Source: Candidatus Curtissbacteria bacterium
GTDB taxonomy: Bacteria; Patescibacteriota; Microgenomatia; Curtissbacterales; GWA2-41-24
Length of the DNA stretch: 64,000 bases
Assembly: GCA_030647775.1 (NCBI GenBank)
Contig: JAUSJC010000010.1
Span: 72,718-136,717 of the forward strand
Direction of reading: 5' to 3'
The notes under the pieces are model-generated. The model did no database searches. It was not told the DNA's origin and saw nothing but the letters and a program-made list of their open reading frames with translations. Made by a program: the position numbers and the translations under genes. Shown here in pieces: positions 650 through 59,443 of this stretch; within the stretch, counting starts at the first letter, position 1; every line of letters begins with the position of its first letter.

Positions 650-1996
650 TCATTCCCTCACATTGAGGGAAGGCCCTGGTGTCATCTGGAAAATGCGTCC
701 TGACGGAGTTGCTTCGATTGTCACTGATTTATCCTGGGCCATTGTATCCAAAAGTGCCTTGCCGGAAAATTGGATTAAACCCTCCGGTAGAACTACTATG
801 TTATTGGTAATCCCGCTGCGGTTCCGGTAATAGGTAACCTCGGCAAACGATGGCAGAACCGTCACAATCGTGTCTCCCGGAGTAATCTGTGGGACAACTT
901 TATCTCGGTAGACTTCCCGGAACGAATAAGGGCTCGAGAAAAATGTCCGAAAATCGATTAAAAGGGCCAAAATCAAAACCGCACCGATTGAAATCTTAAA
1001 AAGCACGGGCGGCAATTTCTGGCCGCTATGGACAGCCACCATCGAAAGAGGTACCGAAGCCCCAATTAAATACCGCCAGAAAAAAAGCGGCCGCAAAGGG
1101 AATTTAAATTCGTCAACCTTAAGACCGGGAAGTGAAGCTAAAATAAAAGGCACGATTGCCCAAAGCCAAATTAACATGTAGGGTTTTTCGAACTTGCGCC
1201 TGACCAAATGTTGGTATATGCCAACCAGAAGTAAACCGGCCGAAAGCCAAAAAAGCGGGAATTGAAAAGCATTCTGTTCTTCTCCGGCTAAAATTCGCAG
1301 TAAGGCCTCATAGTGAGTGCTTATGTTAATTGCCCCGATCCAGAAGCTGGCACCGGCCGACATCACTTGCTTTGCCAAAAATGGAATCCAGGGCAAATAC
1401 AAAACACCGCAGGCAATTCCCAAGCCCAGAGTCTTTACTAAAATCTTCCGGTCAAACAGCAAAACATAAAGCCCCTCGGCGAGAATCGTAAAAAACATGT
1501 AGTAATGTGTATAAATTCCAAGCGTTGAAAAAAGTACGAAAAGTATTGCGGACTTTCTCGTAAACTTCTCCGAAAGCCTCAAAAGAAAATAGACAGAACC
1601 GGTTGCCGCAAATGCAAATAGCGTGTAGTTTCTTGCTTCAAATGCGTAGCGGAAAAAGATGGGGTTAACAAAAACGGCGACTGCCGATAAAATTCCAAAT
1701 AAATGCCTGCCCTCCGAAGCCTTGGCGAAGGAGGGCCCCTTGAATAGGGAGGCTAAAAGATAAACGAGATAAATGGTTGCCAGGAAAAAAAATATCGAAA
1801 TCGAACGGGTTACAATTTCAGTCGGCGGTAAAAACTTATAAACCGCTTCGACAATCGAATAATAAGCCGGCGGATGGAAATCGGCCGCCGTTGTTTTGAG
1901 CATCTGGGAGTAGGGAAGTTGGGAGATCAAAGAAGTCCAAGCTTCATCGCCCCAAAAACCGCGCGTCAAATATGTCTGGGCAAAAACTGAAAACAT
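650..1996 (-). CDS. Membrane glycosyltransferase, GT39/GT83 (ArnT/PMT-like) family
   Basis: 448 aa polytopic membrane protein; N-term ...WGDEAW... ; paralogous to partial upstream gene. Confidence 0.55.
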   Translation of the reverse strand: MFSVFAQTYLTRGFWGDEAWTSLISQLPYSQMLKTTAADFHPPAYYSIVEAVYKFLPPTEIVTRSISIFFFLATIYLVYLLASLFKGPSFAKASEGRHLFGILSAVAVFVNPIFFRYAFEARNYTLFAFAATGSVYFLLRLSEKFTRKSAILFVLFSTLGIYTHYYMFFTILAEGLYVLLFDRKILVKTLGLGIACGVLYLPWIPFLAKQVMSAGASFWIGAINISTHYEALLRILAGEEQNAFQFPLFWLSAGLLLVGIYQHLVRRKFEKPYMLIWLWAIVPFILASLPGLKVDEFKFPLRPLFFWRYLIGASVPLSMVAVHSGQKLPPVLFKISIGAVLILALLIDFRTFFSSPYSFREVYRDKVVPQITPGDTIVTVLPSFAEVTYYRNRSGITNNIVVLPEGLIQFSGKALLDTMAQDKSVTIEATPSGRIFQMTPGPSLNVRE

Positions 1997-3690: not shown

Positions 3691-5143
3691 TTCCAAGCAT
3701 TAACCGCGTATGGGCATCAATCCCCGGCAGTGCCGTAAAAACAAAAGTCACAACCGGCATTAAAATAAACTCTAGTGGCATTGTAATTTTACGGATTAAA
3801 CTAACATCTGCCCTCTTTGGTCTTTGTTTTAAATCCACGATTAAGATTACAAGCAGAAATCCCCAACATGCCGTCAAAATTCCAAAAGAAATTCTCGGCA
3901 AATTCTGGCCCATCACAGTTTGGGCAAAAAGCGGATTTATAAGAACTGGGATTGTCGCGCCAAGCGTTATAGCAAACCAGTTAACCGGCCAGAGGAAATG
4001 GTCCTCCAAAACCTTAGCAACCCGAACAGTCCTTCTCCAAAAAGGGATATGGGTATGGGTGAGCCACTTTTTAATAAAGTATGAATCATCCGAAACCCCC
4101 CACGCCCAGCGTTTTTCCTGCTCATACAAATTAACGAGCGATTTAAAGTAGCTAGTTGACTGGGCACAATCGGCATAAACCGGTAAAAATATCGGGTCGA
4201 CATCGACCTTACCCTCTTTAGCAAAAAAACTTTTGAAAAATATCCTGAAATCCTCTGGAATTACATCAACATCCCAATATCCAACATCATCGAGCAGCTT
4301 TAAAGAAAGTGAATACATCGAACAATTAACCAGCCGGTCAGTGCGGCTGTTTAAACCGGTTTGCCAAACAGAAGAAAGCGAACTCATAACCCGTATTGGC
4401 GCCGGAGTTTTCCAGATGTTGTTGTAAAAAAGCACAATCGGCTGCCAGAACGATAAATATCTGTGGTCGCTGGCCAAAAACTTATATGTAAGGCAAGAAA
4501 GATATTTTCCGTCAAAAATCCCGTCGGCATCTTTGGAAGTTACCGTAATGTAGTCAATGTTACGTCTCTGGCGATCTACCAAAATTTTCTTGGCAAGCTT
4601 CCCGGCGTATGCTTCGTTGGAAGATTTCCCTTTAACCTCGCCCTTGACGTCCGGATGGTATGTAACAATAAAATTGGCAAATTTGTTTTTATATTTGGAA
4701 GCTAAAACTTTTGCTTTATCACGAGCCTCTTTTCCCTCCCTGTCTTCAAATGCCAGACAAATCGAAATTTGTTTTTTCGGTATATCTTGGTTGGCTATCG
4801 AATCAACACCCTTTTCAATTGTATGTATTGGCTCTTTATAAGTCGGGATGACAACTAAATGGTGGACTTTGCCAAAATCAGGCAGTCGTTTAGCATCGGC
4901 GAGCCAGTCATATCTCTTGGCTGCGTTGAGTTTTACGTGGGATAGTACCGAAGTTACGGCCAAAGACCCGGATTTATAAAACCACAAAACGTCAAACAAA
5001 ATTATATAGTAGGCAACGTAATGGGGAATCCAAAAAGAACCCCAGACTGGAAAAAGGATCAGAGACCACGAAAAAGTCCCCGGCAAAATTTCCAGGAATC
5101 TATGGACTTGGCGGTCGTACCGTTCGACAAATTTTTTAATCAT
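3656..5143 (-). CDS. Family 2 glycosyltransferase, processive (cellulose/chitin/PNAG-synthase-like)
   Basis: 495 aa; N-terminal TM, GT2 core, QEKRW (QxxRW) motif, C-terminal TM helices. Confidence 0.6.
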   Translation of the reverse strand: MIKKFVERYDRQVHRFLEILPGTFSWSLILFPVWGSFWIPHYVAYYIILFDVLWFYKSGSLAVTSVLSHVKLNAAKRYDWLADAKRLPDFGKVHHLVVIPTYKEPIHTIEKGVDSIANQDIPKKQISICLAFEDREGKEARDKAKVLASKYKNKFANFIVTYHPDVKGEVKGKSSNEAYAGKLAKKILVDRQRRNIDYITVTSKDADGIFDGKYLSCLTYKFLASDHRYLSFWQPIVLFYNNIWKTPAPIRVMSSLSSVWQTGLNSRTDRLVNCSMYSLSLKLLDDVGYWDVDVIPEDFRIFFKSFFAKEGKVDVDPIFLPVYADCAQSTSYFKSLVNLYEQEKRWAWGVSDDSYFIKKWLTHTHIPFWRRTVRVAKVLEDHFLWPVNWFAITLGATIPVLINPLFAQTVMGQNLPRISFGILTACWGFLLVILIVDLKQRPKRADVSLIRKITMPLEFILMPVVTFVFTALPGIDAHTRLMLGKYLEYRVTEKV

Positions 5144-5967
5144 ATCCCAAACAGTTTCTTAGCATTATCACCAGTTATATCACTGATCCGGTCAAATGGA
5201 AGATTGCGAAGATCGGCCAAGAATTGAGCTGTTATTCTAACATTTTTCGGTTCATTAGTCTTGCCGCGCAGGGGAACGGGGGAAAGAAAGGGGGAATCGG
5301 TCTCCACCAAAATCCTATCCTCCGGTACCATCTTGGCAACTTGGGAAATCTGCCCGGCATTTTTGAAAGTCACAATTCCGGAAAAGGAAATGTAGAATCC
5401 TAAATCAAGCGCTTTCTTTGCTTGTTCCCAGTTGCCCGTCCAGGAATGGAATACCCCTTTTTTTGTCGATCGACCAAAAAATGGGAACAATAGCGCGAAG
5501 GTGTCATCCCAAGCATTGCGACAATGGACAATCAGAGGAAGGTCAAGCTCTTTTGCCAATTTTATTTGCGCTTCAAATAGTTCTCTCTGGGCTTTTTTCT
5601 GGTCCTCACTTGTTGCCGGACCTTGATCAGTCTTTTCTAAAAAATAATCCATCCCGCATTCACCAATCCCGACAACTTTTTTCGAAGACTGCGCGACTTT
5701 TTTTAATTCATCTATAAAATTAGGTCCGTACTTTTTAATATCTTTTGGACCTTCCTGCGCGTGTATCCCGCAAGTGGCGTAAACGTTAACAAGATCCGTC
5801 CCTTCGGCTATCTCAATCGACTTTCTACTCGCATCAATCGATGTTCCGACGTTAATGATTGTCGTCACCCCGGCCTCTTTCGCCCGAAGCAGCTCGATTT
5901 TTATATCTCGAATCATACCTGCCTTGCCGGCAGGCAGGTCCAAATGGCAATGGGTATCTGTGAGCAT
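5140..5967 (-). CDS. tatD: TatD family metal-dependent hydrolase/DNase
   Basis: MLTDTHCHLD..., GECGMDY motif; 21-nt palindrome CCTGCCTTGCCGGCAGGCAGG inserted in frame at 5918-5938 (encodes LPAGKAG). Confidence 0.85.
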   Translation of the reverse strand: MLTDTHCHLDLPAGKAGMIRDIKIELLRAKEAGVTTIINVGTSIDASRKSIEIAEGTDLVNVYATCGIHAQEGPKDIKKYGPNFIDELKKVAQSSKKVVGIGECGMDYFLEKTDQGPATSEDQKKAQRELFEAQIKLAKELDLPLIVHCRNAWDDTFALLFPFFGRSTKKGVFHSWTGNWEQAKKALDLGFYISFSGIVTFKNAGQISQVAKMVPEDRILVETDSPFLSPVPLRGKTNEPKNVRITAQFLADLRNLPFDRISDITGDNAKKLFGI

Positions 5968-5968: not shown

Positions 5969-7430
5969 TTAAATTCTTGGAAATAGCGGTTTTTCTACGG
6001 AAATTTTCCCGGTGAATTGGGTCAAAATCACCTCACTGGTTTCCGGCAAAAACGGCCCTAGATTAAAAGCTATTTCGCGGATTTCTTGCGCTATCGGTGT
6101 AATTACTTTTTTCAATTTTGCCCCTTCCAATTCCCACGGCTTTTCTGCGTTGATCTTTTTATCAAGCACCGATATCTCTTCCCATAGACCGATCATTGCT
6201 TGATCAAACCGAAAGTTTTTAAGGTTCTCCAAAACCACTTTTTTAAAAGTAAAATTCTTTTTTTCGGGCAGAGCCAAGTTTGTGTCGCTTGCCAAACGTG
6301 CAACTCTTGCCACTAAATTCCCAATCCCATTTGCTAGTTCGCCGTTGTAAAGATCATGAAACCGGGTAAGCGAAAAATCCCCGTCACCCCAAGCGGGAAT
6401 TTCGCGAAGTAAATAAAACCTCACCGCCTCTTTCCCGAATTTTTCTACCAGTTCAAATGGGTCAATAACATTTCCAAGTGATTTGGAAATTTTTTGCCCT
6501 TCAACAGTTATATAACCATGGACAAATTCATCAGTTGGTAGTGGCAACCCGGCACTGGCCAACATCGCCGGCCAGTAAACGGCGTGGAAACGAATGATTC
6601 CCTTGCCAATAACGTGCAGGCGGTTTTTGTTATCGATCCAATATTTTTTATAAAGATCCTCATCTTTCCCCTCCGGGCCAGAGGCCCCTCCGGGCCGGCG
6701 GCCAAACCCAAGCGCCGTTAAATATGTAACCAGCGCATCAAACCAAACATACATAATCTGCGTTTCATCTCCCGGCACCGGTACACCCCACGAGTGTGCA
6801 CGCGCAACAGAACGGGAAATACTAAAATCTTCCAGTCCCTGGCGTATAAACGAAAGCACCTCGTGCTTTTTTGTTTGCGGGACAATTTTGAGTCTATCCG
6901 TCTGGATTAAATCGTCCAGATATTTTTGATAGTTGGAAAGTTTGAAAAAATAATTTTCTTCTTCAATCTCATCGATATTTGTATGTCCTTCCAGGCACTT
7001 GCCGTCGACGATTTCGCTGGGCGTATAAAACGCCTCACACCCCACACAATAAAGCCCCCGATAATTTTTCTTGTAAATATCTTCTTCCTTGCACAAGGAC
7101 CACAACTTTTGCGCTCCGGCAAAATGTTCTTTTGTCGCCGTTCGGTTGAAAACATCAAAGGTTAAATTTAAAGCGTCTTTTAGGCTTTCGAATCGATCCG
7201 CGTATTTTTTTACAAGAGCATCAGTCTTTACGCCCTCCGCTTCCGCCGCCTGTACATTCTTCAAAGAATTCTCATCACTCCCGGAAGAAAAGTAAACGTC
7301 ATACCCCGTCGCTCTATAAAATCTCGCCAGAGCATCCGTCTGCACAAACTCCAGTGCGTGTCCGACGTGCGGGTTGGCGTTAACATAAGGAATAGCGGTA
7401 GTAACATAAATTCGTTTCATTTTTTTCTCG
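5969..7430 (-). CDS. metG: Methionyl-tRNA synthetase
   Basis: TTAIPYVNANPHVGHA (HIGH region) and KISKSLGNV (KMSKS) motifs. ORF track extends to 7621 through two repeat elements; true start most likely MKRIY at 7430. Confidence 0.9.
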
Positions 7431-7438
7431 TCATCCCG

Positions 7439-7512
7439 AACTGACACTTGTGTCATCCCGAACTTGTTTCGGGATCTATTTTGATTCAGGATCTTTCCGA
7501 CAATTATATATT
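7439..7512. repeat. Palindromic MITE-like element, GTCATCCYGAAC...GTTCRGGATGAC family (hairpin GATCCCGAAACAAGTTCGGGATGAC)
   Basis: Nearly identical copies at 21639-21748 and 63624-63716; related copies at 17803-17858, 19381-19415, 8281-8372, 49161-49258, 52521-52608, 31332-31394, 25245-25309. Confidence 0.85.
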
Positions 7513-7600
7513 CTTCGAGTGAGTTCTGCATTGCAGAACGAATCGAGAAGTTTAGAAGTTTGAATAGTTCTCGACTTCGCTCGAACAATAAATCAATAGT
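7513..7600. repeat. MITE-like element with terminal inverted repeats CTTCGAGYGAG ... GCTCGAACAATA and internal palindrome GTTCTGCATTGCAGAAC
   Basis: Family copies at 8183-8240, 12926-12960, 18556-18660, 19246-19330, 26205-26240, 30888-30977, 35660-35754, 52497-52644, 63950-63990. Confidence 0.8.
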
Positions 7601-7615
7601 TGTACAATATAAGTA

Positions 7616-8182
7616 ATGCAAAAAGGTTTCATCGGTCCGACAATTGTCGTACTCATCGGCATTCTTGCCCTAGCTGGTCTAATTGGTCTTGCCTTTTACC
7701 TCGGCAAAAAATCCACCGGCCCAACAGCGACAACCCCTGTTGCCCAGCAAGATGAAACTACAAATTGGAAAACATACACAAGTCAAGTAACCCAGGTGGA
7801 ACTTAAATTGCCACAAGATTGGACAGAACGCCAAGAAGGCAAAACGCTTTTCTTGAAAGACAAGAAAAGCACGAGTGAGATTACAATTGTAAAAGATTTT
7901 GAAGGAGGTTTTGGGAGCAACTTGGAAGAGGCAAGGGATCCAAGGGAGATTACAATAGGCGGACAAAAAGCAACTATATATTATTATCACTCTGCCGACA
8001 ATTTTGCTGTTCTTCTTGGTGAATCCGGAACCCCAGTAGTAGATAGGGAGAACATATTTTCCAACATCTTTATCGAAAGAGGACAAGGAAACTATTTAAT
8101 TTTGGGAATGTGGAAGGCAACAGATCAGGATGCAGAAATATTACTTAACCAAATCCTCTCCACCTTCAAATTCACAAACTAG
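7616..8182 (+). CDS. Secreted/membrane-anchored protein, paralog A of a 3-member family (N-terminal signal anchor, ...GKKSTGPTATTPV..NWKTYT.. core, C-terminal QILSTFKFT)
   Basis: 188 aa; paralogs at 17882-18553 and 18698-19243 share N- and C-termini with divergent middle; -10-like element immediately upstream (leaderless-type start). Confidence 0.6.
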   Translation: MQKGFIGPTIVVLIGILALAGLIGLAFYLGKKSTGPTATTPVAQQDETTNWKTYTSQVTQVELKLPQDWTERQEGKTLFLKDKKSTSEITIVKDFEGGFGSNLEEARDPREITIGGQKATIYYYHSADNFAVLLGESGTPVVDRENIFSNIFIERGQGNYLILGMWKATDQDAEILLNQILSTFKFTN

Positions 8183-12427: not shown

Positions 12428-12820
12428 CTATTTCTTCCCCAAATAGCTCCAAAAAGCAAAAAGCCCAACGGCTAAAATCACCCCAAATAAATTAAACAGA
12501 TTTAAAACCTGCGAGGCGGTGAGTTGGGCAACCGAAGCCACAAAAAGTGCCACGAAAAACGCCATTTTAAACGAAGTTTTAAAGTACCAACTCGGGTCAT
12601 AGCGCTTATAAAACTTTGTCCTTACAAAATAAAGCAAGCACCCAAGACCGCAAAATACAAAAGTAAATAAAAGTGCGTCAAAACCCGCGAAAATATACCA
12701 AGGCGCTTTTTGCGGGTCAAAAACCGTCACGATCCAGGCAATCCCAAAAAGCGAAGCGAATGCGGCGAGAAATGTAAAAGGCAAAAGTTGATGCATAAAT
12801 ATATTGTAACCCAGCTCCGT
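12428..12820 (-). CDS. Small hypothetical membrane protein
   Basis: 4 TM helices; ORF-track N-terminus (MPAGRSLA) is read-through of a palindromic repeat; likely start MTELGYN. Confidence 0.35.
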   Translation of the reverse strand, partial: TELGYNIFMHQLLPFTFLAAFASLFGIAWIVTVFDPQKAPWYIFAGFDALLFTFVFCGLGCLLYFVRTKFYKRYDPSWYFKTSFKMAFFVALFVASVAQLTASQVLNLFNLFGVILAVGLFAFWSYLGKK

Positions 12821-12925
12821 CATTGCGAGCGACCTGCCTGCCGGCAAGGCAGGAGCGAAGCAATCTCAAACAAGAAAGATTGCTTCGTCGCCCTGAGCGA
12901 AGTCGAAGGGCTCCTCGCAATGACA
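12821..12925. repeat. Composite palindromic element GTCATTGCGAG-[CCTGCCTGCCGGCAAGGCAGG]-GAGCGAAGCAATCTC...GATTGCTTCG-[CCCTGAGCGAAGTCGAAGGG]-CTCCTCGCAATGAC
   Basis: Outer inverted repeat GTCATTGCGAG/CTCGCAATGAC; related copies 17745-17800, 48601-48690, 19721-19803. Confidence 0.8.
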
Positions 12926-14687: not shown

Positions 14688-17600
14688 GTGTCCAGTGTTC
14701 TCAAAGATTTAAATCCCGAACAACTTAAAGCCGTAACCACGACCGTTGGCCCGCTACTTATAATCGCCGGGGCCGGAACCGGCAAAACCGCCGTCATCGC
14801 TCACAGGATCGCCGCGATTATCGAAAAAAAACTGGCCAAGCCCTCCGAAATTCTGGCGCTAACATTTACCGACAAAGCCGCCGGCGAAATGGAAGAGCGC
14901 GTCGACATTTTAGTCCCTTACGGTTTTATCGATACCTGGATTTCTACCTTCCACGCTTTTGGCGACAGGATCCTGCGCGACAACGCCCTGGATATTGGCC
15001 TGACCCCCGATTTCAAAGTCCTTTCCCGCCCCCAGCAGGTTTTATTTTTCCAGCAAAACCTCTTTCGTTTTCAACTCGATTATTTCCGCCCGCTTTCCAA
15101 CCCCACCAAATTTATCTCCTCCATTCTTTCTTTTTTCTCCCGCTTAAAAGACGAAAACGTCAGCCCTGAGGAATTTCGGAAGTACGCTAAACGACTAATG
15201 ACCAGCGCCAAAGATCAAGAATCGAAAATCGAGGCCAAGAAGTACCAAGAGCTTGCTCAAGCCTTTGAATCTTACGAACGTTTCAAAGAAGAAGCCGGTT
15301 TTTTGGATTTTGGCGATCAGGTTGTTAAAGCAATTGAGCTATTTAAAAAGCGCCCCAAAATTCTGGCAAATTACCAAGACCAGTTTAAATATATTTTGGT
15401 TGACGAATATCAGGACACCAACTTTGCCCAAAACGAATTGGTTAAACTATTGGCCGCCCGCCACAAAAACATTTGCGTCGTCGGCGACGATGACCAATCA
15501 ATTTACAAATTCCGCGGCGCGGCAATTTCCAATATTTTGGAATTTAAAAAAACTTTCCCAAAAGCCGTGCAGGTTGTCCTTACCCAAAACTACCGTTCCA
15601 CCCAGGCAATTTTGGACAGCGCTTATAAATTGATCCGCCACAACGACCCGGATCGCTTGGAAGTCCAAAATAAAATCGACAAAAAATTGAAATCAACTGG
15701 CGGCCAGGGTATTCCGCCGCAGGAAATTTTTGCCGACACTATTTCCGAAGAAGCCGACGCGGTCGCCGGCGAAATCGAAAAGTTAATGGCAAAAAGCGTT
15801 AGTCGTTCGCCTGCCTTGCCGGCCGGCAGGTCGTTAGTCGTTAGTCGATATTCATACCGCGACTTTGCCATTCTGGTCCGCGCCAACTCCCAGGCCGATC
15901 ATTTTCTGCGGGCCCTAAACATGAAAGGCATTCCCCATAAGTTTGTCGGTTCATCCGGTCTTTACCAGCAGCCCGAGGTCAATCTTCTGATTTCTTTTCT
16001 AACTGCCATTTCTAACTTTGAAGATAGTCTGAACCTTTTTAACCTCATGACTTCCGAAATTTACGAAATGCCGGCTATCGACGCCATCAAATTAACTTCC
16101 TGGGCCAAACGTAAAAACCGTTCGCTTTTTTATATCCTTAAGAGTTTAGGGTCCGACCCTCAACCAAAAAAAGATGAAGCGTTTGAAAAGGGTCGGACCC
16201 TTGACGGCTTGGATATTTCCGGCGAATCAAAAGCCGTTGTCGAAAAACTGATTGAAGACCTAAAAGAATCAATCGAACTTTCCAAATCCCAAACTGCCGG
16301 CCGTGTGCTCTACAAATTCCTGGAAGGTGCCGGTTATCTCAAAAAGCTGGAACGTCAAAATGGAGTAGATTCTCAAATCAAAATCCAAAACATCGCCAAG
16401 TTTTTCGATAAAGTCAAAGAATTTGAAAACGTCGCCAGCCCGACATCGCCTAACGGCTCAGCGTTTGGCGGGCGGGCCAAAGTCCACACCGTTTCCCAGT
16501 TTGTCGATTATCTGGAAGCAATCCGCGGTGCCGGCGACGACCCGGCGACAGTGGAATTTGACCCGGAGACGGATGCCGTCAATGTCATGACCGTTCACGG
16601 GGCCAAAGGTCTGGAATTTCCGGTAGTTTTTATGGTCAACCTTGTTGCCGACCGTTTTCCGGTCCGTTCCCGCTCCGACGCCATCGAGGTTCCCCAAGGT
16701 CTCATTCGCGAAACTTTGCCGCAAGGAGATTGGCACCTACAGGAAGAGCGCCGCCTTTTTTATGTCGGGGCCACCCGCGCCAAAAATCTTCTCTATTTTT
16801 CCTGGTCCCGTGATGTCGGCGGCTTGCGCGCCAAGAAAATCTCCCCGTTTGTTTTGGAAGTTCTCGACAAAGCCAAATCAACAGCCGACCTTATAAAACT
16901 TTCACCGCTTGAAAAAATCGAAAAATTCGCCCCCGCCCCTCCGCGTACGACTCAACAAGTCATGTTCGATGTCGATGTCCTAAAGCTCACCCAGGGGTCA
17001 ATCGATGATTACTTAACGTGCGCCTACAAATACCGCTATATCCACATCTTGCGCATTCCCATTCTCCGCCACCACGCCATTGCCTACGGCGCGGCTCTTC
17101 ACAGTGCCGTCGGTGCTTTTCTGACATCTAAGAAAAATGGCCGCATGCTGACCATTGCCCAAACTCTGGAAGTTTTTGAAAACGCTTGGGATAGCGAAGG
17201 ATTTTTGACAATCGAACATGAAGAAAAAAGAAAAGCCGCCGGTAAACTGGCGCTGGAAAGTTTATGGAAACGCGAATCAAAAGACCCTAAACTGCCGACT
17301 CTTATCGAATCAAAATTTAATTTTTCGTTAAAAGAAGTAACAATAGTTGGCCGTTTTGATCGGGTCGATATCGGGCCCGGATCCAAAGTTCACATCATTG
17401 ATTACAAATCCTCCGAAAATATGGATCAGGAAAAGGCAAACGCCCAAGCCAAGCAGTCAAATCAATTGGCAATCTACGCTCTTTATTACTGGAAGCGCCA
17501 CAAAATTATTCCCGAAAAGTTAACGCTCCACTTTTTAGAAAACGGGGTAGAGGGAAGTTACACACCAACCGAAAAGGATTTGGAAAAAGTTGAAAAATTA

Positions 17601-17741
17601 ATACTCGATACCGCCGAAAACATCCGCGCCGACAGCAAAAATAATGCTTTTGCCGCCAAACCCAAGTATTTCGGCCGCGAACCGGCTTGTGTCTACTGTG
17701 CATACAACACAATCTGTCCATTCTCTCTGGCCAAAGTCTAA
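14688..17741 (+). CDS. UvrD/PcrA-family SF1 helicase fused to C-terminal PD-(D/E)xK nuclease with Cys-cluster (AddA/AdnB-like helicase-nuclease)
   Basis: Walker A AGAGTGKT, motifs through VHGAKGLEFP...; C-terminal ...CAYKYRYIHIL...IIDYKSS...CVYCAYNTICPF; contains in-frame repeat-derived segments at 15810-15830 and 16147-16206. Confidence 0.8.
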   Translation: MSSVLKDLNPEQLKAVTTTVGPLLIIAGAGTGKTAVIAHRIAAIIEKKLAKPSEILALTFTDKAAGEMEERVDILVPYGFIDTWISTFHAFGDRILRDNALDIGLTPDFKVLSRPQQVLFFQQNLFRFQLDYFRPLSNPTKFISSILSFFSRLKDENVSPEEFRKYAKRLMTSAKDQESKIEAKKYQELAQAFESYERFKEEAGFLDFGDQVVKAIELFKKRPKILANYQDQFKYILVDEYQDTNFAQNELVKLLAARHKNICVVGDDDQSIYKFRGAAISNILEFKKTFPKAVQVVLTQNYRSTQAILDSAYKLIRHNDPDRLEVQNKIDKKLKSTGGQGIPPQEIFADTISEEADAVAGEIEKLMAKSVSRSPALPAGRSLVVSRYSYRDFAILVRANSQADHFLRALNMKGIPHKFVGSSGLYQQPEVNLLISFLTAISNFEDSLNLFNLMTSEIYEMPAIDAIKLTSWAKRKNRSLFYILKSLGSDPQPKKDEAFEKGRTLDGLDISGESKAVVEKLIEDLKESIELSKSQTAGRVLYKFLEGAGYLKKLERQNGVDSQIKIQNIAKFFDKVKEFENVASPTSPNGSAFGGRAKVHTVSQFVDYLEAIRGAGDDPATVEFDPETDAVNVMTVHGAKGLEFPVVFMVNLVADRFPVRSRSDAIEVPQGLIRETLPQGDWHLQEERRLFYVGATRAKNLLYFSWSRDVGGLRAKKISPFVLEVLDKAKSTADLIKLSPLEKIEKFAPAPPRTTQQVMFDVDVLKLTQGSIDDYLTCAYKYRYIHILRIPILRHHAIAYGAALHSAVGAFLTSKKNGRMLTIAQTLEVFENAWDSEGFLTIEHEEKRKAAGKLALESLWKRESKDPKLPTLIESKFNFSLKEVTIVGRFDRVDIGPGSKVHIIDYKSSENMDQEKANAQAKQSNQLAIYALYYWKRHKIIPEKLTLHFLENGVEGSYTPTEKDLEKVEKLILDTAENIRADSKNNAFAAKPKYFGREPACVYCAYNTICPFSLAKV

Positions 17742-17744: not shown

Positions 17745-17858
17745 CCGCCTGTCATTGCGAGGAGTTCTGCATTGCAGAACGACGAAGCAATCTCTTCATA
17801 ACCGTCATTCCGAACTTGTTTCGGAATCTAGATCCTGAAATAAATTCAGGATGACAGT
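17745..17858. repeat. Two adjacent palindromic elements (GTCATTGCGAGGAGTTCTGCATTGCAGAACGACGAAGCAATCTC and GTCATTCCGAACTTGTTTCGGAATCTAGATCCTGAAATAAATTCAGGATGAC)
   Basis: Direct reading. Confidence 0.85.
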
Positions 17859-17881
17859 AACAGTTGTATAATCAATTCACA

Positions 17882-18553
17882 ATGCAAAAACGCGGAATTA
17901 TCCTCCCACTAATCCTTATCGCAATACTCGCCATTGCCGGTTTAATCGCCCTCGGAATCTCTATTGGCAAAAAATCCTCCGGCCCAACAGCGACAAATCC
18001 GGTTGTTACAGTTCAAGCCTCACCCGTTCCATCTCCATCTCCAGATGAAACTGCAAATTGGAAAACATACACCAATAATCTTGTAAAGTTCTCTCTCAAG
18101 CTTCCGACGGATATAGAAGTAGTAGGAATAGGTATAGGGCCACCAGCGGCAATTGATGCAAGCGAAGTCATAATTTGTAGAGGTTGCAATAATTCCGTAG
18201 ACCCAGCAAAGACGCCTCTAATCTATATCCGGACGACTGAACTAAAATACACAATTTTCAAAGACATGGCTTTTTCTGGTATCGTGAAACAAAATTATGA
18301 TGCCAACATTGCCAATAAAAATAGCACCAAATCCGTTATTAAGCCACTGCAACAAATTACTTTTGCAGGAGAGCCGGCCTTTACTTATACTTTGGATAGC
18401 TCAGGCTACAGTGGCAAATATGACGGCTTTACGACTTATTCAGGCATAAACAAAATCATTGAGGTTCAACGTAATGGAATCTTTTATGTTTTTATTTATG
18501 TGCAAGATTCGACTTTTGACCAAATCCTCTCCACCTTCAGGTTCACGCAATAG
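17882..18553 (+). CDS. Secreted/membrane-anchored protein, paralog B (contains SPSPSP linker)
   Basis: Starts MQKRGIILPL...; TTGTATAAT 10 nt upstream suggests leaderless start (ORF track start 17864 is TTG inside the -10 box); C-terminal QILSTFRFTQ. Confidence 0.6.
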   Translation: MQKRGIILPLILIAILAIAGLIALGISIGKKSSGPTATNPVVTVQASPVPSPSPDETANWKTYTNNLVKFSLKLPTDIEVVGIGIGPPAAIDASEVIICRGCNNSVDPAKTPLIYIRTTELKYTIFKDMAFSGIVKQNYDANIANKNSTKSVIKPLQQITFAGEPAFTYTLDSSGYSGKYDGFTTYSGINKIIEVQRNGIFYVFIYVQDSTFDQILSTFRFTQ

Positions 18554-39285: not shown

Positions 39286-39329
39286 CCCCAATTTTCCCGC
39301 CCGAATTTTTTTGGCTTTGATATAATTGC
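39286..39329 (+). promoter_or_regulatory. Cassette boundary/promoter motif copy 1 (degenerate): CCCCAATTTTCCCGCCCGAATTTTTTTGGCTTTGATATAAT
   Basis: Extended -10 TGATATAAT 39318-39326, 6 nt before ATG 39333. Confidence 0.6.
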
Positions 39330-39332
39330 TTG

Positions 39333-39659: not shown

Positions 39660-39694
39660 GATTCCAATAAGTAAGCACAATTAGAATTTTAGTT

Positions 39695-41312: not shown

Positions 41313-41313
41313 A

Positions 41314-47622: not shown

Positions 47623-48597
47623 ATGGATCAAAACTCTAAACAAAAAACCCTCGATAATTTAACAAAGGCCGAAATCATCCTAGTTGCCGTATCGGAAAAT
47701 GCCGGTTTTGACGGCATGGCAGCGGGCCTTGCCCTTTATCTTTCTTGTCTTAAGCTTGGCAAAAACACGGCTGTTCAAGCCAAAAACCCGTCTGTTGATG
47801 ATGCCCAAAGGCTTTACGGTGTAGATAAGATTGGCCGCATAGAAGGAAGCAAAAATCTCGTCATTGTTGTTAACGATGCAGTCGAAAACGTTGACAAGGT
47901 TACTTATTCACTTGAGGGTACAAAACTCAAAATAGTTGTCCATCCTTTCCCAGGCGCCAAAAATGTCAACCGCCACCAAATTTCTTTTGAGGAGACTTCT
48001 ACAAAACCCAATTTAGTTTTTGCAGTAGGTTTCCAAACACAAGAAGAATTGAATCAAGTTATTGCTCATGAGCAAAATTTAGACCCAACCATCTGGATTA
48101 TCAATATTAACAAGCAGGACGTAGGCCAATTGTCCGCTCAAGTTAGCGCCAATAATTCCCAAGCCGCTTCGATTTGTGAAGTTACGGCCCAAATTTTCCA
48201 ACAGCTTGCCCTGCCGCTGGACGAAGACATTGCTTACAACCTTTATGCCGGTGTTGCCCAAGCCACGAATTATTTTTCCCCAAGCCTGGCAAGCCCTTTA
48301 AGCTTTGAAACGGCTTCGTGGCTTTTGAAATTCGGCGCCGGCCGGGCAAGTTTTGCCAAGGGGCAAAGTTCCCAGTTATCTATGCCAAAACCGCAAATGC
48401 CTCCGCTGGAAGAATCGGATATTGCCGCAGGCGGACAGTTCCAAAATCCTAACCCCTTTGACCAGCCGCCGATTGAGCAAGTTGAAAGGTCAAAGACCCT
48501 GAGCCCAGTCGAAGGGCCGAAGGCTACTACGCAGGAAAATTGGCTAAAGCCGCCCAAAGTTTATAGAGGTTCCAAATCCTTTGACAGCGAGAAGTAA
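47623..48597 (+). CDS. DHH-family (NrnA-like) protein with degenerate catalytic motifs (tentative)
   Basis: EIILVAVSENAGFDGMAAGLAL at position of HxxPDGDAxGS; C-terminus contains repeat-derived KTLSPVEGPKA. Confidence 0.35.
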   Translation: MDQNSKQKTLDNLTKAEIILVAVSENAGFDGMAAGLALYLSCLKLGKNTAVQAKNPSVDDAQRLYGVDKIGRIEGSKNLVIVVNDAVENVDKVTYSLEGTKLKIVVHPFPGAKNVNRHQISFEETSTKPNLVFAVGFQTQEELNQVIAHEQNLDPTIWIININKQDVGQLSAQVSANNSQAASICEVTAQIFQQLALPLDEDIAYNLYAGVAQATNYFSPSLASPLSFETASWLLKFGAGRASFAKGQSSQLSMPKPQMPPLEESDIAAGGQFQNPNPFDQPPIEQVERSKTLSPVEGPKATTQENWLKPPKVYRGSKSFDSEK

Positions 48598-52644: not shown

Positions 52645-53739
52645 ATGCCATCCTCAACTGCCCAATTTGAAGACATCACGCTTTTGGAAAATAAACTCAA
52701 AAGCGCCAGCCTACCCCCAGACCTAAAAGCAAAAGCCTTGGCGCAGTTAGAAAGGCTCGTCCGCTTAGCATCCGCCCAAGGATATTCCCAGGAATACGAT
52801 TCCATTTCCCGTTATATCGACTGGATAATTACGCTTCCATGGGGTAAAAGAAGCGTTGATACCCTTTCCATCGAAAACGCCAGAAAAATCATGGACGCCA
52901 ACCACTTTGGCCTGGAAAAAGTTAAAGAAAGAATTTTAGAATACATTGCCGTTGCCTGCCTTGCCGGCAGGCAGGCCAGCCTCGCCGAGTCTAGGCGGGC
53001 CAGTCTCAAAGAAAGCAATTCATCAGAAAAATCAAAGGCACCGACGTTTCTCCTTTTAGGTCTTGTTGGGACCGGCAAAACCACTCTTGGTTATTCCATT
53101 GCCCAGGCCCTCGGCCGCCAGTTCGGCCGCATTCCAATGGGCGGAATGGGGGATGCCCTGCAGCTTCGCGGCCGCTCCCGCGCTTATCCCGACGCCGAGC
53201 CGGGCCAAATCATGAAAGTGTTACGTCGCGTCCAGACCAAAAACCCGGTCATACTCTTGGATGAAATCGACCGCGTTACCGATGAAGCCAAAGCCGACAT
53301 CATGGGGGTATTGGTGGAGCTTTTAGACCCGGAGCAAAATGCCAGTTTCCTCGACCATTTCGTGGATTACCCATTTGACCTTTCCGAAGTGCTGTTTATC
53401 GCGACGGCCAACAATACCGGCGGCATCGCCACGGCAGTTCTCGACCGGCTCGAGGTTATCGAAATGCCAAGCTACACCGACGACCAAAAAATTAAAATCG
53501 GCAAGGATTATCTTTTGCTCAAGGCTCTTTCCGCAAACGGCCTGTCAGCCGGCGATATCGTCTTCCCCGAAAATATCTGGCATTTAATCGTCCGCCCTTT
53601 GGGTTTTGATGCCGGCATGAGAACGCTCGACAGGACCATCAGCGGCATTTGCCGCAAAGTTGCCAAGCTCAAAGTCGAGGGTAAAGCGACCAAAATAACT
53701 TTAACCGAAGAAAATCTCAAAGAATATATACCGAGCTAG
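52645..53739 (+). CDS. Lon-like AAA+ ATPase module only (no N-terminal substrate domain, no protease domain), with in-frame repeat insertion
   Basis: Aligns to Lon residues ~230-590: GLVGTGKTT Walker A, ILLDEID Walker B, TANN sensor, LDRLEVIEM; 52955-52975 palindrome inserted between ILEYIAV and LLLGLVG. Confidence 0.7.
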   Translation: MPSSTAQFEDITLLENKLKSASLPPDLKAKALAQLERLVRLASAQGYSQEYDSISRYIDWIITLPWGKRSVDTLSIENARKIMDANHFGLEKVKERILEYIAVACLAGRQASLAESRRASLKESNSSEKSKAPTFLLLGLVGTGKTTLGYSIAQALGRQFGRIPMGGMGDALQLRGRSRAYPDAEPGQIMKVLRRVQTKNPVILLDEIDRVTDEAKADIMGVLVELLDPEQNASFLDHFVDYPFDLSEVLFIATANNTGGIATAVLDRLEVIEMPSYTDDQKIKIGKDYLLLKALSANGLSAGDIVFPENIWHLIVRPLGFDAGMRTLDRTISGICRKVAKLKVEGKATKITLTEENLKEYIPS

Positions 53740-57095: not shown

Positions 57096-57508
57096 ACGAC
57101 CACAACCACAATCCAAATCACAACAGCAACAATATTTCTTCACTTGTAGCAGGTGTAGTTTTAGGTGCCGCCCTAACTTATCTCTTTGGTACAAAAAGCG
57201 GCCAGAAATTAAAGGACGAACTTGTAAAAGAAGGCCAAAAGCTCCTTGAAGAAATGGGCAAGGAACTTGAAGAAACCAAGGATAAAATCGCCGAAGGTCC
57301 TGAGCGAAGTCGAAGGGAAGAAAGTGAAGTCGGCAAAAAATTAGAATCGGTCAAAGAAAAAGCCGAAGGCACTAAGTTGGTTCAAAATGCCATTGAAGCA
57401 AAAGAACAGTTGCAAGAGGTTATCGAAGACGTTCCAAAGCACATCGAAGAAATCCAGAAAAAAGGCCGCCGCTTTTTCTTCAAGCGCTCTGCCGCCCACG
57501 AGTCGTAA
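57092..57508 (+). CDS. YtxH-like small membrane protein with repeat-derived insert
   Basis: SLVAGVVLGAALTYLFGTKSGQKLKDEL YtxH-type N-terminus; contains GPERSRRE unit (57298-57318). Confidence 0.45.
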   Translation: MNDHNHNPNHNSNNISSLVAGVVLGAALTYLFGTKSGQKLKDELVKEGQKLLEEMGKELEETKDKIAEGPERSRREESEVGKKLESVKEKAEGTKLVQNAIEAKEQLQEVIEDVPKHIEEIQKKGRRFFFKRSAAHES

Positions 57509-57604: not shown

Positions 57605-59443
57605 ATGACCTCGCAAGAACTTCGCCAGAAGTATCTTAAGTTTTTTGAAGACAAGGGACACAAAATTATTCCCTCGGCATCTCTTGTGCCCAAAGAAGAT
57701 GTGGAGCTTGCCGGGACCCAGCGCGTTTTATTTACGACAGCCGGTATGCATCCACTGGTTCCCTATCTACTTGGCACGTCTCACCCCGAAGGCAAGCGCT
57801 TGGTAAACGTTCAAAAATGTCTTAGAACCGACGATATCGACCAAGTCGGGGACAGCGTCCATAACACATTTTTCGAAATGCTTGGCAACTGGTCGCTTGG
57901 CGACTACGGTAAAGTTGAGGCCATTTCCTGGTCATACGATTTCCTAATCAACCATTTAAAACTCGATGCCAAACGCCTTTATATTTCTGTTTTTGCCGGG
58001 GACGACGATGCGCCATTTGACCAAGAGTCTTTCGATATCTGGAGAAAACTCGGTATGCCCGAAGATCACATATTTCGCTACGGCAAAAAAGATAATTGGT
58101 GGGGTCCCGTTGGCCCGAGCGGTCCATGCGGCCCGGACACCGAAATGTTCTACGATATCAAACCTAACGATCCCGGATCGTTAGACCCGTCAAGCAATTC
58201 CCAACGCTTCGTCGAAATCTGGAACGACGTTTTTATGGAGTACGACAAACAAAAAGATGGATCGTTCAAACCTCTTGCTCAACGAAACGTCGACACCGGC
58301 ATGGGCTTGGAACGAATGCTTGCAGTTTTACAAAACGCGCCTTCAAGCTTAGGCCCGCAGTTCTGCATTGCAGAACGAGGACCGCATGCCATGGCCCTTG
58401 TAAGGGGCACTGTATACGAAACCGATGTTTTTCTTCCTCTTATGAAACAGATAGAGGAATTATCGGCAAACTTCCAGGATAAATCCGCCCGCATTGTAGC
58501 CGACCATCTGCGCGCATCGGTTTTCCTCATATCAGACGGAGTCATTCCGTCAAACGTCGAACGCGGCTATATCCTGCGCCGCCTGATCCGCCGCCTGATC
58601 CGCCACGCATCGCTTCTTAAAATCGAGCAGGATTTCTTAGAAGATTTAACAAAAGTTGTCGTTAAAACCTATAGCGATTTTTATCCAAAGCTAGAAGAGT
58701 TTCAGGAATCAATCATCACTGAACTTAAAAAAGAGGAAGCAAAGTTTAAAAAAGCCTTAGCCCAAGGCATCCATGAGTTTGAAAAGATAGGCGGCGACAT
58801 TTCCGGCCGCGACGCTTTTAATCTTTATCAAAACTACGGTTTCCCCATAGAGTTAACTGTCGAAATGGCCCTTGAATCAAATAAAGGAGTTGACGTCCCG
58901 GGTTTTGAAAAAGAATTCAAGGCCCATCAGGATTTATCCCGAAAAGCGGGGGAGAAAACCAAAGGGGGAATGACTACTCAAAGCGACCGCACCGCCAAGC
59001 TCCATACGGCAACCCATCTTCTGCACCAGGCACTCCGTGATGTATTGGGAGACCATGCTCACCAAACCGGTTCACACATTACGGACGTTAGGCTGCGTTT
59101 TGATTTCACTCACGACGCCAAAATGACGGAAGACCAGATTAAAAAAGTTGAAGATTTGGTCAACCAAAAAATAAAAGATAATCTGCCGGTCGAGAAAGTT
59201 ACCATGCCGAAAGCCGCGGCCGACGAAATCGGTGCCATTGGCCTGTTTGACGATAAATACGGCGATCTGGTCAACATTTACTTTATGGGTGCAGGTAATC
59301 CCAAAGATGCCTATTCCAAAGAATTTTGCGGCGGTCCGCACGCCGACTCGACAGGATCGCTTGGAAAGTTTAAGATAATTAAAGAGGAATCAGCAGGTTC
59401 TGGCGTGCGCCGAATCTATGCTACAATTAGTAATCCGAATTGA
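57605..59443 (+). CDS. alaS: Alanyl-tRNA synthetase (short form: catalytic + editing domains)
   Basis: Class II motifs, QKCLRTDDID...FFEMLGNWSLGDY, editing HTATHLLH / CGGPH; in-frame insertion at 58352-58386. Confidence 0.85.
   Translation: MTSQELRQKYLKFFEDKGHKIIPSASLVPKEDVELAGTQRVLFTTAGMHPLVPYLLGTSHPEGKRLVNVQKCLRTDDIDQVGDSVHNTFFEMLGNWSLGDYGKVEAISWSYDFLINHLKLDAKRLYISVFAGDDDAPFDQESFDIWRKLGMPEDHIFRYGKKDNWWGPVGPSGPCGPDTEMFYDIKPNDPGSLDPSSNSQRFVEIWNDVFMEYDKQKDGSFKPLAQRNVDTGMGLERMLAVLQNAPSSLGPQFCIAERGPHAMALVRGTVYETDVFLPLMKQIEELSANFQDKSARIVADHLRASVFLISDGVIPSNVERGYILRRLIRRLIRHASLLKIEQDFLEDLTKVVVKTYSDFYPKLEEFQESIITELKKEEAKFKKALAQGIHEFEKIGGDISGRDAFNLYQNYGFPIELTVEMALESNKGVDVPGFEKEFKAHQDLSRKAGEKTKGGMTTQSDRTAKLHTATHLLHQALRDVLGDHAHQTGSHITDVRLRFDFTHDAKMTEDQIKKVEDLVNQKIKDNLPVEKVTMPKAAADEIGAIGLFDDKYGDLVNIYFMGAGNPKDAYSKEFCGGPHADSTGSLGKFKIIKEESAGSGVRRIYATISNPN

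Follow-up and report, generated by a model that had tools for sequence, protein, structure and literature searches.

A 21-nt near-palindrome that recurs in the genome of a Candidatus Curtissbacteria bacterium is best explained as one copy of an insertion element that is minimal, palindromic, and non-autonomous, and that is read through in frame within genes and filtered by selection, a reading that we hold with a probability of roughly 75%. Copies are added as a discrete unit with exact ends, into spacers as well as into genes. Exact and near-exact searches of the 64-kb stretch of DNA that we analyzed (the window) recovered four copies in both orientations (+, -, + and +), in agreement with the original prediction, and a looser pattern recovered no others. 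None is expected by chance; the 21-mer was matched in 0 of 100 dinucleotide-preserving shuffles. The predicted coordinates held for the three copies that match the plus strand, whereas the minus-strand copy, placed at 12834-12854, lies at 12833-12853. All features are listed in Table 1.

Table 1. Positions of palindrome copies and of other hairpin modules in the window.
Feature	Positions	Strand	Description
Copy 1	5918..5938	listed as -; search match +	Exact; in TatD gene 5140-5967, minus strand
Copy 2	12833..12853	-	Exact; spacer between small membrane protein (start ~12796, minus) and rmuC (12980, plus)
Copy 3	15810..15830	+	One mismatch (A->C); in UvrD/PD-(D/E)XK helicase-nuclease 14688-17741, read PALPAGR
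Copy 4	52955..52975	+	Exact; in Lon-type AAA+ ATPase 52645-53739, read (A)CLAGRQ
Tandem heptamer array	15796..15847	+	(TCGTTAG)-like; ~2 units on each side of copy 3 (SVSRS...SLVVSR)
Second Lon module, 24 nt	52976..52999	+	Hairpin CGCCGAGTCTAGGCGGG plus 7-nt direct repeat CCAGCCT; abuts copy 4
Nested hairpin-module composite	12819..12924		Holds copy 2: GTCATTGCGAGCGA, 21-mer, AGCGAAGCAATCTC...GAGATTGCTTCG, CCCTGAGCGAAGTCGAAGGG, CTCCTCGCAATGAC
30-nt GC-rich hairpin insertion, another family	1705..1734	-	In ORF 650-1996; window-specific relative to L291
33-nt GC-rich insertion	6669..6701	-	In MetRS-like gene 5969-7621; window-specific relative to L291
30-nt insertion, CCCTGAGCnnAGTCGAAGGG family, D7	48489..48518	+	In ORF 47623-48597; window-specific relative to L122
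27-nt insertion, CCCTGAGCnnAGTCGAAGGG family	57290..57316	+	In YtxH-like ORF 57092-57508; window-specific relative to L122
66-nt insertion with hairpin GTTCTGCATTGCAGAAC, D12	58349..58414	+	In AlaRS-like gene 57605-59443; window-specific relative to L122
Predicted peptides spanning the insertions			HLDLPAGKAGMIR, SRSPALPAGRSLV, AVACLAGRQASL

The 21-mer starts with CCTGCC, finishes with GGCAGG and contains no stop codon in any frame on either strand. It is a +T derivative of a perfect 20-bp palindrome, CCTGCCTGCCGGCAGGCAGG, whose layout, (CCTG)2CC-GG(CAGG)2, is of low complexity. Several +1 variants of the 20-mer occur, with T, C or G at position 8 or A near the 3' end. The predicted DNA folding energies are -8.0 kcal/mol for the 20-mer and -6.0 kcal/mol for the 21-mer, with unremarkable folding z-scores.

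In TatD, the element encodes LPAGKAG directly behind the HxH motif that binds metal. Among the aligned full-length orthologues, the 10 closest read HCHLD-MI at this point, whereas the window protein reads HCHLD-LPAGKAG-MI. At the DNA level, the change from the empty site GGA|TATG in the syntenic relative L291 to the filled site GGA-(21 nt)-TATG is precise. The same site after HxHLD is occupied elsewhere. The TatD gene of L293 carries the 20-mer at the very phosphodiester that holds the window 21-mer, and that of L292 carries a different +1 variant 3 nt away, with most of the intervening aligned orthologues lacking an insert there. TsaD-like and LeuRS-like genes likewise show repeated hits at the same loops. 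An exact look-up of the 275-aa TatD returned no record, because gene callers start TatD after the element (P0241).

Orthologues of the helicase-nuclease read GTTAGTCGTTCG|TCGTTAGTCG, with the element absent, and the window copy is a precise 21-nt insertion relative to L127 and L128. The heptamer array around it is present without the palindrome in orthologues and is missing from the shortest of them. Here, the window exceeds L125 by 48 nt, made up of 27 nt of array and the 21-nt element.

The Lon copy occupies the linker that leads into the Walker A strand and is a precise 21-nt difference from L121 (P0002), a protein with 93% amino acid identity. It had been described as the start of a roughly 22-aa insert. 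The insert does begin with the 21-mer, but it comprises two adjacent insertions, the second being a different 24-nt module that is read as SLAESRRA. This loop occurs in three states, namely empty (L122 and L123), with the 24-nt module (L121 and L124), and with the 24-nt module plus the 21-mer (the window), and insertion was stepwise. An AlphaFold model of the Lon AAA+ protein was set aside, as its mean pLDDT of 60 is too low to use and the insert region scores lowest.

The orthologue comparison that the original prediction had proposed thus shows all three coding copies to be exact 21-nt indels, each of which lengthens its housekeeping gene by seven codons, and the translations that it gave (LPAGKAG for TatD, PALPAGR for the helicase, and ACLAGRQ for Lon) were correct on re-translation. 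All three sites fall in loops of variable length among orthologues and are alignment gaps relative to the solved Lon, TatD, and PcrA structures. Reading-frame continuity and the conserved flanking motifs suggest that the element is translated through. There is virtually no chance that these peptides are ordinary conserved protein motifs or that the repeat is an assembly artifact. The orthologue alignments refute this reading, since the residues are missing from most aligned orthologues, including all of the closest ones, and three genes use three different frames of the element. An assembly-specific error is unlikely because an independent assembly (SRR13727527) shows 100% identity across 4,823 nt, the TatD copy included, and the sequence also occurs in cultured isolates. 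In principle, the indels could instead be deletions, but many lineages would then have had to lose exactly these 21 nt, which is much less economical.

Copy 2 had been assigned to the N-terminal region of the small membrane protein, and at least four genes were accordingly said to be hit. We found only three of the four copies to be genic. Copy 2 enters an ORF only via a TTG start inside the repeat, and the orthologues of the small membrane protein in three relatives (L125, L127, and L291) are 123 aa long, in agreement with the ATG at ~12796, which places the copy in the spacer before rmuC. The spurious N-terminal extension made by this TTG, like the TatD start that one gene caller sets after the element, is an example of the annotation problems in metagenome-assembled genomes that the palindrome would explain. 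The spacer is 183 nt long in the window versus 37-76 nt in relatives, and the nested composite that it contains includes repeat families D7 and D13 and is absent from L125 and L127.

At least five further hairpin module families in the window behave like the 21-mer. Allowing up to two mismatches for modules of at least 17 nt, we counted 39 module copies in the 64-kb window; the closest relative (~80% nucleotide identity) had none in 40 kb of synteny. Relative to close orthologues, eight in-gene hairpin-module insertions range from 21 to 66 nt, and all are multiples of 3. From these sequence comparisons, at least six module families, the 21-mer included, appear to have invaded this genome together in a lineage-specific manner. 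The co-occurrence of five unrelated modules that are all absent from the relative points to a shared trans-acting cause.

The exact 21-mer is present in at least 120 GTDB species-representative genomes, where by our own calculation about one occurrence would be expected in 596 Gb. Its hosts include Patescibacteria, Bacteroidota isolates, Omnitrophota, Ignavibacteriota, Planctomycetota, and Nitrospirota; among the cultured carriers are Arenibacter, Marinoscillum furvescens DSM 4134, Aequorivita vladivostokensis, and Hyunsoonleella flava. Copies were also found in viral contigs. Flanks of the copies are unrelated. A 21-mer that is letter-identical in so many phyla behaves like an extremely small mobile element. 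None of the papers searched contains the 21-mer, the 20-mer, or the derived peptides; strings from the other modules matched only unrelated primers, and keyword searches of the literature returned only general papers on REPs, RPEs, and MITEs.

Empty and filled sites at the three dated loci show that the ends of the insertions are exact, with at most 1 nt of ambiguity and no target-site duplication, and that all three targets are purine^pyrimidine steps. Across ~300 copies, the flanks show a pyrimidine preference at +1 only, and no tag. The 7 nt to the left and right match each other in 13% of 21-mers and 7% of 20-mers. Copies in spacers often sit at the tip of other hairpin modules. About 10% of copies lie in register inside tandem heptamer arrays, which the insertion model does not predict. 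This last feature would suit a local and repeated origin, in which template switching, or synthesis primed by a hairpin, generates palindromes at CCTG/CAGG or heptamer repeats prone to slippage, with no common source; the low-complexity sequence and the existence of several +1 variants point in the same direction. However, the empty sites hold no CCTG/CAGG seed, the identical 20-mer or 21-mer occurs between unrelated flanks in more than 100 species against ~1 expected, and the five unrelated modules that co-occur in the window are all absent from the relative. We therefore consider a local origin highly improbable.

It is also improbable, if less so, that the palindrome is a functional cis-element under selection rather than selfish DNA, for example, the binding site of a dimeric protein, an mRNA hairpin acting in translation or stability, or a terminator. 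Such a role would fit its perfect conservation across phyla, its capacity to form a hairpin, and its over-representation in intergenic regions relative to random positions. Against it, presence of the element differs between genomes of 80-93% identity, its copies lie in genes and at positions that are unrelated to one another, and the 40 kb from the closest relative contains no copy. The window has no Rfam family match, and the folding z-scores cited above do not single the element out. A classical intrinsic terminator is ruled out because no T-run follows the element.

The original prediction held that the length of the element suits insertion into ORFs, and this gains support from the distribution of the two forms. 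Within one metagenome sample, the 21-nt forms were in long ORFs in 18 of 22 cases (82%) compared with 19 of 59 (32%) for the 20-mer (Fisher P = 1e-4). The contrast is modest when all sets are pooled, with 78 of 129 21-mers (60%) and 43 of 100 20-mers (43%) in ORFs (P = 0.011), an ORF being defined for these percentages as a stop-free frame of at least 150 codons. Random positions were in ORFs in 77% of cases, so intergenic copies are over-represented for both forms, which indicates that genes are tolerated rather than preferred as sites. Frame usage is skewed toward cysteine-free peptides; 43 of 80 copies are read in the frame encoding LPAGKAG (chi-square P = 3e-17). In contrast, 20-mers in ORFs show no frame bias (23/17/16).

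Under the insertion-element reading, selection would filter the insertions, and those that survive would be divisible by three in net length, lie in length-variable loops, and be read mostly in cysteine-free frames. Such filtering would account for ORFs showing the 21-nt form and not the 20-nt form, which is the commoner of the two. The multiple-of-three length may reflect either selection on the element or the mere survivorship of insertions, two possibilities that are indistinguishable here. We also considered a translational bypass or intron-like removal of the 20-mer. Its deletion brought back a long ORF at 12 of the 72 sites outside ORFs, which is not different from the 217 of 1,868 random controls, and the idea was dropped.

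The element has no room for any coding capacity of its own, and its movement or copying must therefore depend on a trans-acting factor. This factor would have a fixed sequence or structure specificity and would itself travel between phyla. No mobilizing gene was detected among 35 window ORFs scanned with Pfam, and we identified no parent IS. By association, we tentatively nominate a stand-alone GIY-YIG nuclease of 80-100 aa that would act on the extruded hairpin or cruciform. GIY-YIG is the only protein family that recurs beside the palindrome at independent loci, with 9 loci found by clustering the neighbors of ~290 loci and 15 by jackhmmer, and Pfam confirms the domain (PF01541). The two features lie within ~250 nt of each other at 8 of the 15 loci, an adjacency that is inflated because both favor spacers. 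A GIY-YIG neighbor accompanies only ~3% of palindrome copies; ~97% are without one, as are those in the window.

A more speculative extension is that the palindrome and its co-traveling modules are passengers of a new mobility system common to Patescibacteria, Bacteroidota, Omnitrophota, and others, in which the GIY-YIG nuclease recognizes the extruded hairpin or cruciform and cuts at its edges. The palindrome would then be copied or ligated into breaks elsewhere, and repeated staggered cleavage would have left the tandem heptamers as scars. In free-standing GIY-YIG homing-endonuclease cassettes, the ORF is adjacent to the element and a duplicated target lies on both sides.

The main alternative for the mobilizing enzyme, which we regard as unlikely, is a Y1/HUH single-strand transposase (RAYT or IS200/IS605 TnpA). 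Precise insertion without target-site duplication and a hairpin substrate are what such an enzyme would lead one to expect, and REPs, which measure 20-40 nt, have been described within genes, in particular those for replication and repair (PMC3733652). However, the GTAG or CGTC tag is absent from our element, REP families are species-specific whereas this sequence is common to many phyla, and no RAYT or HUH-type gene was found among the 35 scanned window ORFs or among the recurrent neighbors of the ~290 loci as grouped by clustering. IS200/IS605 elements also insert without duplication, by means of a Y1 transposase and 3' to a short specific target; the target here is a purine^pyrimidine step only.

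The element is of a known kind, REP- or RPE-like. The mobile G+C-rich clusters in the mitochondria of yeast and other fungi are likewise very short palindromes, rich in GC and dispersed through an AT-richer genome. They vary in presence from strain to strain, can stand alone or in arrays, and sometimes lie in coding sequence. We know of no mobilizing enzyme for these clusters, which coexist with homing-endonuclease genes. Unlike our element, they are organellar, lineage-specific in sequence, and usually flanked by short duplicated AT-rich targets. Rickettsia palindromic elements (RPEs) reportedly go back to work by Ogata et al. in 2000. RPEs have been reviewed (PMC2229807, PMC3184786) and resemble our element in being palindromic, located in frame in housekeeping genes, recognizable as indels relative to orthologues, and read through; both can be judged selfish DNA tolerated at permissive sites. 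However, RPEs are ~100-150 bp long, restricted to Rickettsia, and defined by a family consensus, whereas this element is 20-21 bp long and letter-identical across phyla, with no family-specific flanks.

REP/BIME repeats and their RAYT transposases (Di Nocera et al. 2013, PMC3733652) offer another close parallel. REPs are 20-40-nt hairpins that form mosaic spacer clusters with short modules, and copy 2 lies in such a mosaic. Some REPs lie wholly within ORFs, and these often belong to genes of replication or repair and occupy comparable positions from one species to another (PMC3733652). In contrast to our element, REPs carry an unpaired GTAG/CGTC terminal tag (PMC3733652), are mostly extragenic (three of the four window copies are genic, and by the pooled percentages given above ORFs hold about half or more of all copies), and are specific to a species or genus. 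REPs also flank an associated RAYT gene, of which none was found among the 35 scanned window ORFs or the recurrent neighbors of the ~290 loci. MITEs, such as QMITE1/2 of Coxiella (PMC5896051; reviewed in PMC10969869), are likewise non-autonomous and multi-copy, differ in presence from strain to strain, and may overlap ORFs. They measure from 50 bp to 400-500 bp, however, with IS-derived terminal inverted repeats and target-site duplication. Palindromic mobile repeats related to the G+C-rich clusters of fungal mitochondria have been reported from Fusarium mitochondrial DNA (PMC7218506).

If the insertion-element reading is right, 20-21 bp would suffice for mobile behavior across phylum boundaries. 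Within the streamlined Curtissbacteria genome, loops of essential proteins (TatD, the helicase-nuclease, Lon, and tRNA synthetases) would have been repeatedly lengthened, providing a natural experiment on which protein loops tolerate insertions, and selection would be seen shaping both the length of a parasite (20 versus 21 nt) and its reading frame. Small GIY-YIG proteins and the palindrome would form a testable enzyme-substrate pair for a family whose function is largely unknown. Were the GIY-YIG system real, the palindrome would be the smallest known horizontally spreading mobile DNA. It would also continually feed loop insertions of 7-22 aa into core proteins of reduced genomes, and would even add an arm to a tRNA.

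At five of the eight loci where a GIY-YIG gene is close by, the palindrome lies in the D-arm of a partial tRNA copy. Disruption of tRNAs was rejected as an explanation, as deleting the palindrome in silico gave no new tRNA predictions (63 before and 63 after). The D-arm cases are partial tRNA copies, whereas in one viral contig (L160) the palindrome acts as the variable arm of a tRNA.

The window belongs to a Candidatus Curtissbacteria (Patescibacteria) MAG. A search of it with the pattern CCTGCCTTGCCGGCAGGCAGG, allowing up to three mismatches, returned four matches (see table), and a looser pattern found no further copies of the 21-nt element (21-mer) there. A match to the 21-mer pattern was present in none of 100 dinucleotide-preserving shuffles of the window. 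The element is a perfect 20-bp palindrome, CCTGCCTGCCGGCAGGCAGG (20-mer), with one additional T, and only these 21 nt are common to the four copies, the flanking DNA being unrelated. None of its six reading frames contains a stop codon; they encode PALPAGR, LPCRQA, and CLAGRQ on the forward strand and PACRQGR, LPAGKAG, and CLPARQ on the reverse strand. The original prediction placed the repeat in at least four genes. All four copies are real, but only three lie inside genes, whose products were assigned by Pfam and PDB searches, and copy 2 is intergenic.

Features of the window and of stretches from other genomes (L-numbers)
Feature	Position	Strand	Details
21-mer copy 1	5918-5938	+	exact match; in TatD gene
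21-mer copy 2	12833-12853	-	exact match; intergenic
21-mer copy 3	15810-15830	+	one mismatch (A->C); in helicase-nuclease gene
21-mer copy 4	52955-52975	+	exact match; in Lon-type AAA+ gene
TatD hydrolase	5140-5967	-	host of copy 1
UvrD-type helicase fused to PD-(D/E)XK nuclease	14688-17741		host of copy 3
Lon-type AAA+ plus lid protein, no protease domain	52645-53739		host of copy 4
Window-specific module in gene	1705-1734		30 nt
Window-specific module in gene	6669-6701		33 nt
Window-specific module in gene	48489-48518		30 nt
Window-specific module in gene	52976-52999		24 nt
Window-specific module in gene	57290-57316		27 nt
Window-specific module in gene	58349-58414		66 nt
Hairpin-module cluster	17745-17860		at the place of the L125 GIY-YIG gene
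GIY-YIG gene	L125 9835-10215		87 aa
Partial tRNA/GIY-YIG/tRNA	L167 ~480-900
Partial tRNA/GIY-YIG/tRNA	L224 ~760-1200
Partial tRNA/GIY-YIG/tRNA	L258 640-1136
Partial tRNA/GIY-YIG/tRNA	L290 356-680
Partial tRNA/GIY-YIG/tRNA	L230 4400-4800
tRNA-Met with 20-bp palindrome	L160 2239-2330		viral contig
grpE	35052-35672	+	Pfam GrpE
Tandem modules in grpE	35085-35199		families D1/D7
Paralogous ORF 1	7616-8182		weak PsbP_2 match
Paralogous ORF 2	17864-18553		weak DUF5325 match only
Paralogous ORF 3	18698-19243		weak PsbP_2 match
D3 stretch	7652-7742		91 nt
D3 stretch	17915-18005		91 nt
D3 stretch	18737-18827		91 nt
Region with recurrent motif	39287-44306		families D8, D11, D20

The three coding copies are exact 21-nt indels relative to orthologues at Lon, the helicase, and TatD. 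This comparison had been proposed together with the idea that in-frame insertion is shaped by ORF compatibility, and its outcome supports that idea. At Lon, protein and DNA alignments revealed a single loop in three states: empty (GCCGTT/GTCAACCTC/AAAG, in the orthologous stretches L122 and L123), with a 24-nt module (the hairpin CGCCGAGTCTAGGCGGG plus the 7-nt direct repeat CCAGCCT, in L121 and L124), and, in the window, with the 24-nt module plus exactly the 21-mer. The Lon-like protein (364 aa) consists of AAA+ and lid domains only, the N-terminal and protease domains being absent; the Curtissbacteria orthologues (348-349 aa) share this conserved short form.

The helicase orthologue alignment reads KLMAKK-KYGYRDF in the shortest members, KSVSRS followed directly by SLVVKRYSYRDF in many members, and KSVSRS-PALPAGR-SLVVSRYSYRDF in the window. 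In the DNA, the 21 nt separate GTTAGTCGTTCG from TCGTTAGTCG, two sequences that adjoin directly in the helicase-region stretches L127 and L128. Across orthologues, this loop is occupied by at least four distinct heptamer arrays, which may or may not enclose differing hairpin modules at the center. Some of the Curtissbacteria orthologues of this protein (P0123, P0145, P0176, and P0220) are 1,345-1,410 aa long with intein or Hint domains (PF14890, PF01079).

Among the aligned full-length orthologues of TatD, the 10 closest have DTHCHLD-MI and the window has DTHCHLD-LPAGKAG-MI, corresponding to GGA^TATG in the orthologue versus GGA[21 nt]TATG in the window. Aligned blind against its syntenic relative, the window yielded copy 1 as the inserted block, and an independent assembly from another sequencing run was 100% identical over 4.8 kb, including this copy. 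The TatD gene of L293 carries the 20-mer after HxHLD, at the same phosphodiester as the 21-mer of the window, and that of L292 carries a different +1 variant (CCTGCCTGCCGGCAGGCAAGG) 3 nt away from this point. One gene caller set the TatD start at Met18, just past the palindrome (P0241, 258 aa; window 5918-5967, L294 1047-1823), which loses the conserved HxH metal-binding motif. From its sequence, the end of the TatD element, AAGGCAGG-T-ATG, resembles a ribosome-binding site.

Copy 2 was placed outside a gene because the ORF holding it requires a TTG start within the repeat itself and because the orthologous small membrane protein, 123 aa in three relatives, matches an ATG near 12796 in the window. 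The spacer between this gene and rmuC is 183 nt in the window versus 37-76 nt in relatives, and the surplus DNA consists of nested hairpin modules enclosing the 21-mer.

At least 120 stretches of GTDB species-representative genomes contained the exact 21-mer (one N at position 15), with unrelated flanks; by our own calculation, the chance expectation is about 1 in 596 Gb. The matches listed include, among titled records, about 30 Bacteroidota, some of them isolates (Arenibacter, Marinoscillum furvescens DSM 4134, Aequorivita vladivostokensis, and Hyunsoonleella flava), about 20 Patescibacteria of many classes, Omnitrophota, Ignavibacteriota, Planctomycetota (including Scalindua), Nitrospirota, one Spirochaetia MAG, and several gammaproteobacterial MAGs. 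Viral contigs contained the 20-mer in 35 stretches, more than the 21-mer (7), and no symmetric 22-mer. A metagenome scan accepting both forms yielded 101 20-mer and 28 21-mer sites, the additional base of the 21-nt forms being T, C, or G.

As a proxy for genes, we used stop-free frames of at least 150 codons reaching at least 15 codons to either side of a site, counting sites no closer than 500 nt to a contig end. In the metagenome sample, 18 of 22 21-mers, 19 of 59 20-mers, and 862 of 1,180 random positions (73%) lay in such ORFs; for all sets, the values were 78/129 (60%), 43/100 (43%), and 2,158/2,800 (77%), respectively. The two forms differed from each other in both comparisons (Fisher's test, P = 1e-4 and P = 0.011). 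Judged against random positions, both forms avoid genes relative to chance; of the two, it is the form with a length divisible by three that persists in genes. The +T 21-mer used its frames very unevenly (chi-square P = 3e-17), with LPAGKAG read in 43 copies, PALPAGR in 15, CLAGRQ in 10, PACRQGR in 5, CLPARQ in 4, and LPCRQA in 3, so that the two Cys-free frames account for 73%. The 20-mers in ORFs showed no frame bias (23/17/16). ORFs were restored by deletion of the 20-mer at no higher rate than by deletion of random 20-nt blocks, and there is thus no sign of bypassing or splicing.

Comparison of filled and empty sites revealed no target-site duplication at the three coding insertions, and all three insertion points are purine^pyrimidine steps. 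Identical protein loops have been struck repeatedly in different lineages, in TsaD-like and LeuRS-like genes as well as in TatD and the helicase. The left and right 7 nt were identical around 13% of 21-mers and 7% of 20-mers versus 0.2% of random positions. This match is specific to period 7, and the heptamer sequence varies between genomes. Such arrays may be favored as targets, or repeated staggered cleavage at the element edges may have left them as scars.

No transposase or homing-type nuclease was found among 35 scanned window ORFs. Clustering of every ORF lying 1 kb or less from the palindrome (about 290 loci) gave stand-alone GIY-YIG proteins of 80-100 aa (PF01541) as the sole family recurring across independent loci. 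Such a gene is present at 15 loci, and at 8 of these its distance from the palindrome is about 250 nt or less. Five of the eight (L167, L224, L258, L290, and L230) have the palindrome within the D-arm of a partial tRNA copy, followed closely by the GIY-YIG gene and, downstream of it, by an intact tRNA; L290 has two palindromes, one on either side of the D-loop. In the relatives L125 and L126, a GIY-YIG gene directly follows the helicase, between direct repeats of about 50 nt; the window has no such gene there but a cluster of hairpin modules. We regard the link between palindrome and GIY-YIG gene as no more than an association. About 97% of copies lack such a neighbor, and both features favor spacers. 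In L160, the 20-bp palindrome takes the place of the variable arm in a tRNA-Met still called by ARAGORN as a 92-nt tRNA; in this structured RNA, the arm seems to be a permissive site comparable to the protein loops.

The mechanism of mobility is one that we infer. The element itself is a 21-bp derivative of a 20-bp palindrome common to many phyla. Its insertions are precise and lack duplication, it is probably read through in frame, and selection presumably filters the insertions by length, by frame, and by how permissive the loop is. Elements of this kind are already known. In behavior it most resembles three groups: the selfish Rickettsia palindromic elements (RPEs), which are inserted in frame; REPs, a part of which are intragenic, particularly in repair genes, with comparable positions in different species (PMC3733652); and the mobile GC clusters found in fungal mitochondria. 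However, the 21-mer lacks the GTAG or CGTC tag and the species specificity that define REPs, the 100-150 bp length and Rickettsia host that define RPEs, and the target-site duplication and IS-derived ends that define MITEs. None of the papers searched by sequence contains the element. As far as can be told, its extreme smallness, cross-phylum identity, 20-nt versus 21-nt contrast, heptamer arrays, and GIY-YIG/tRNA association are undescribed.

The window carries several further short hairpin families. A pairwise comparison with 40 kb of syntenic sequence from GCA_041643115.1, the closest genome available (about 80% nucleotide identity), identified six window-specific module insertions in genes, all with lengths that are multiples of three, and larger module composites in spacers. 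Counting six module sequences (up to two mismatches for those of at least 17 nt) gave 39 copies in the 64-kb window versus 0 in the 40 kb of the relative. The entire set evidently invaded one lineage and spared its neighbor, which points to a common cause acting in trans. In several genomes of different phyla (L007, L045, L106, and L280), another module carries the palindrome at one and the same point (...CCTGAG^CTTGTCGAAGG...), and in the window, L092, and L191 the palindrome adjoins GTCATTGCGAG; thus, certain combinations of nested modules recur. Near its 5' end, grpE contains three tandem CCCTGAGCnAAGTCGAAGGG modules. Three paralogous small genes share 91-nt stretches that are 67-73% identical (family D3), the second and third being 90% identical over 102 nt (D10), and resemble each other at their 3' ends, beyond which lie hairpin modules (families D3, D10, D14, and D15). 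Elsewhere in the window, the motif CCCAAATTCCCCGCTCGATTT occurs 6-7 times, directly upstream of successive short genes, and may serve them as a common promoter or operator motif.
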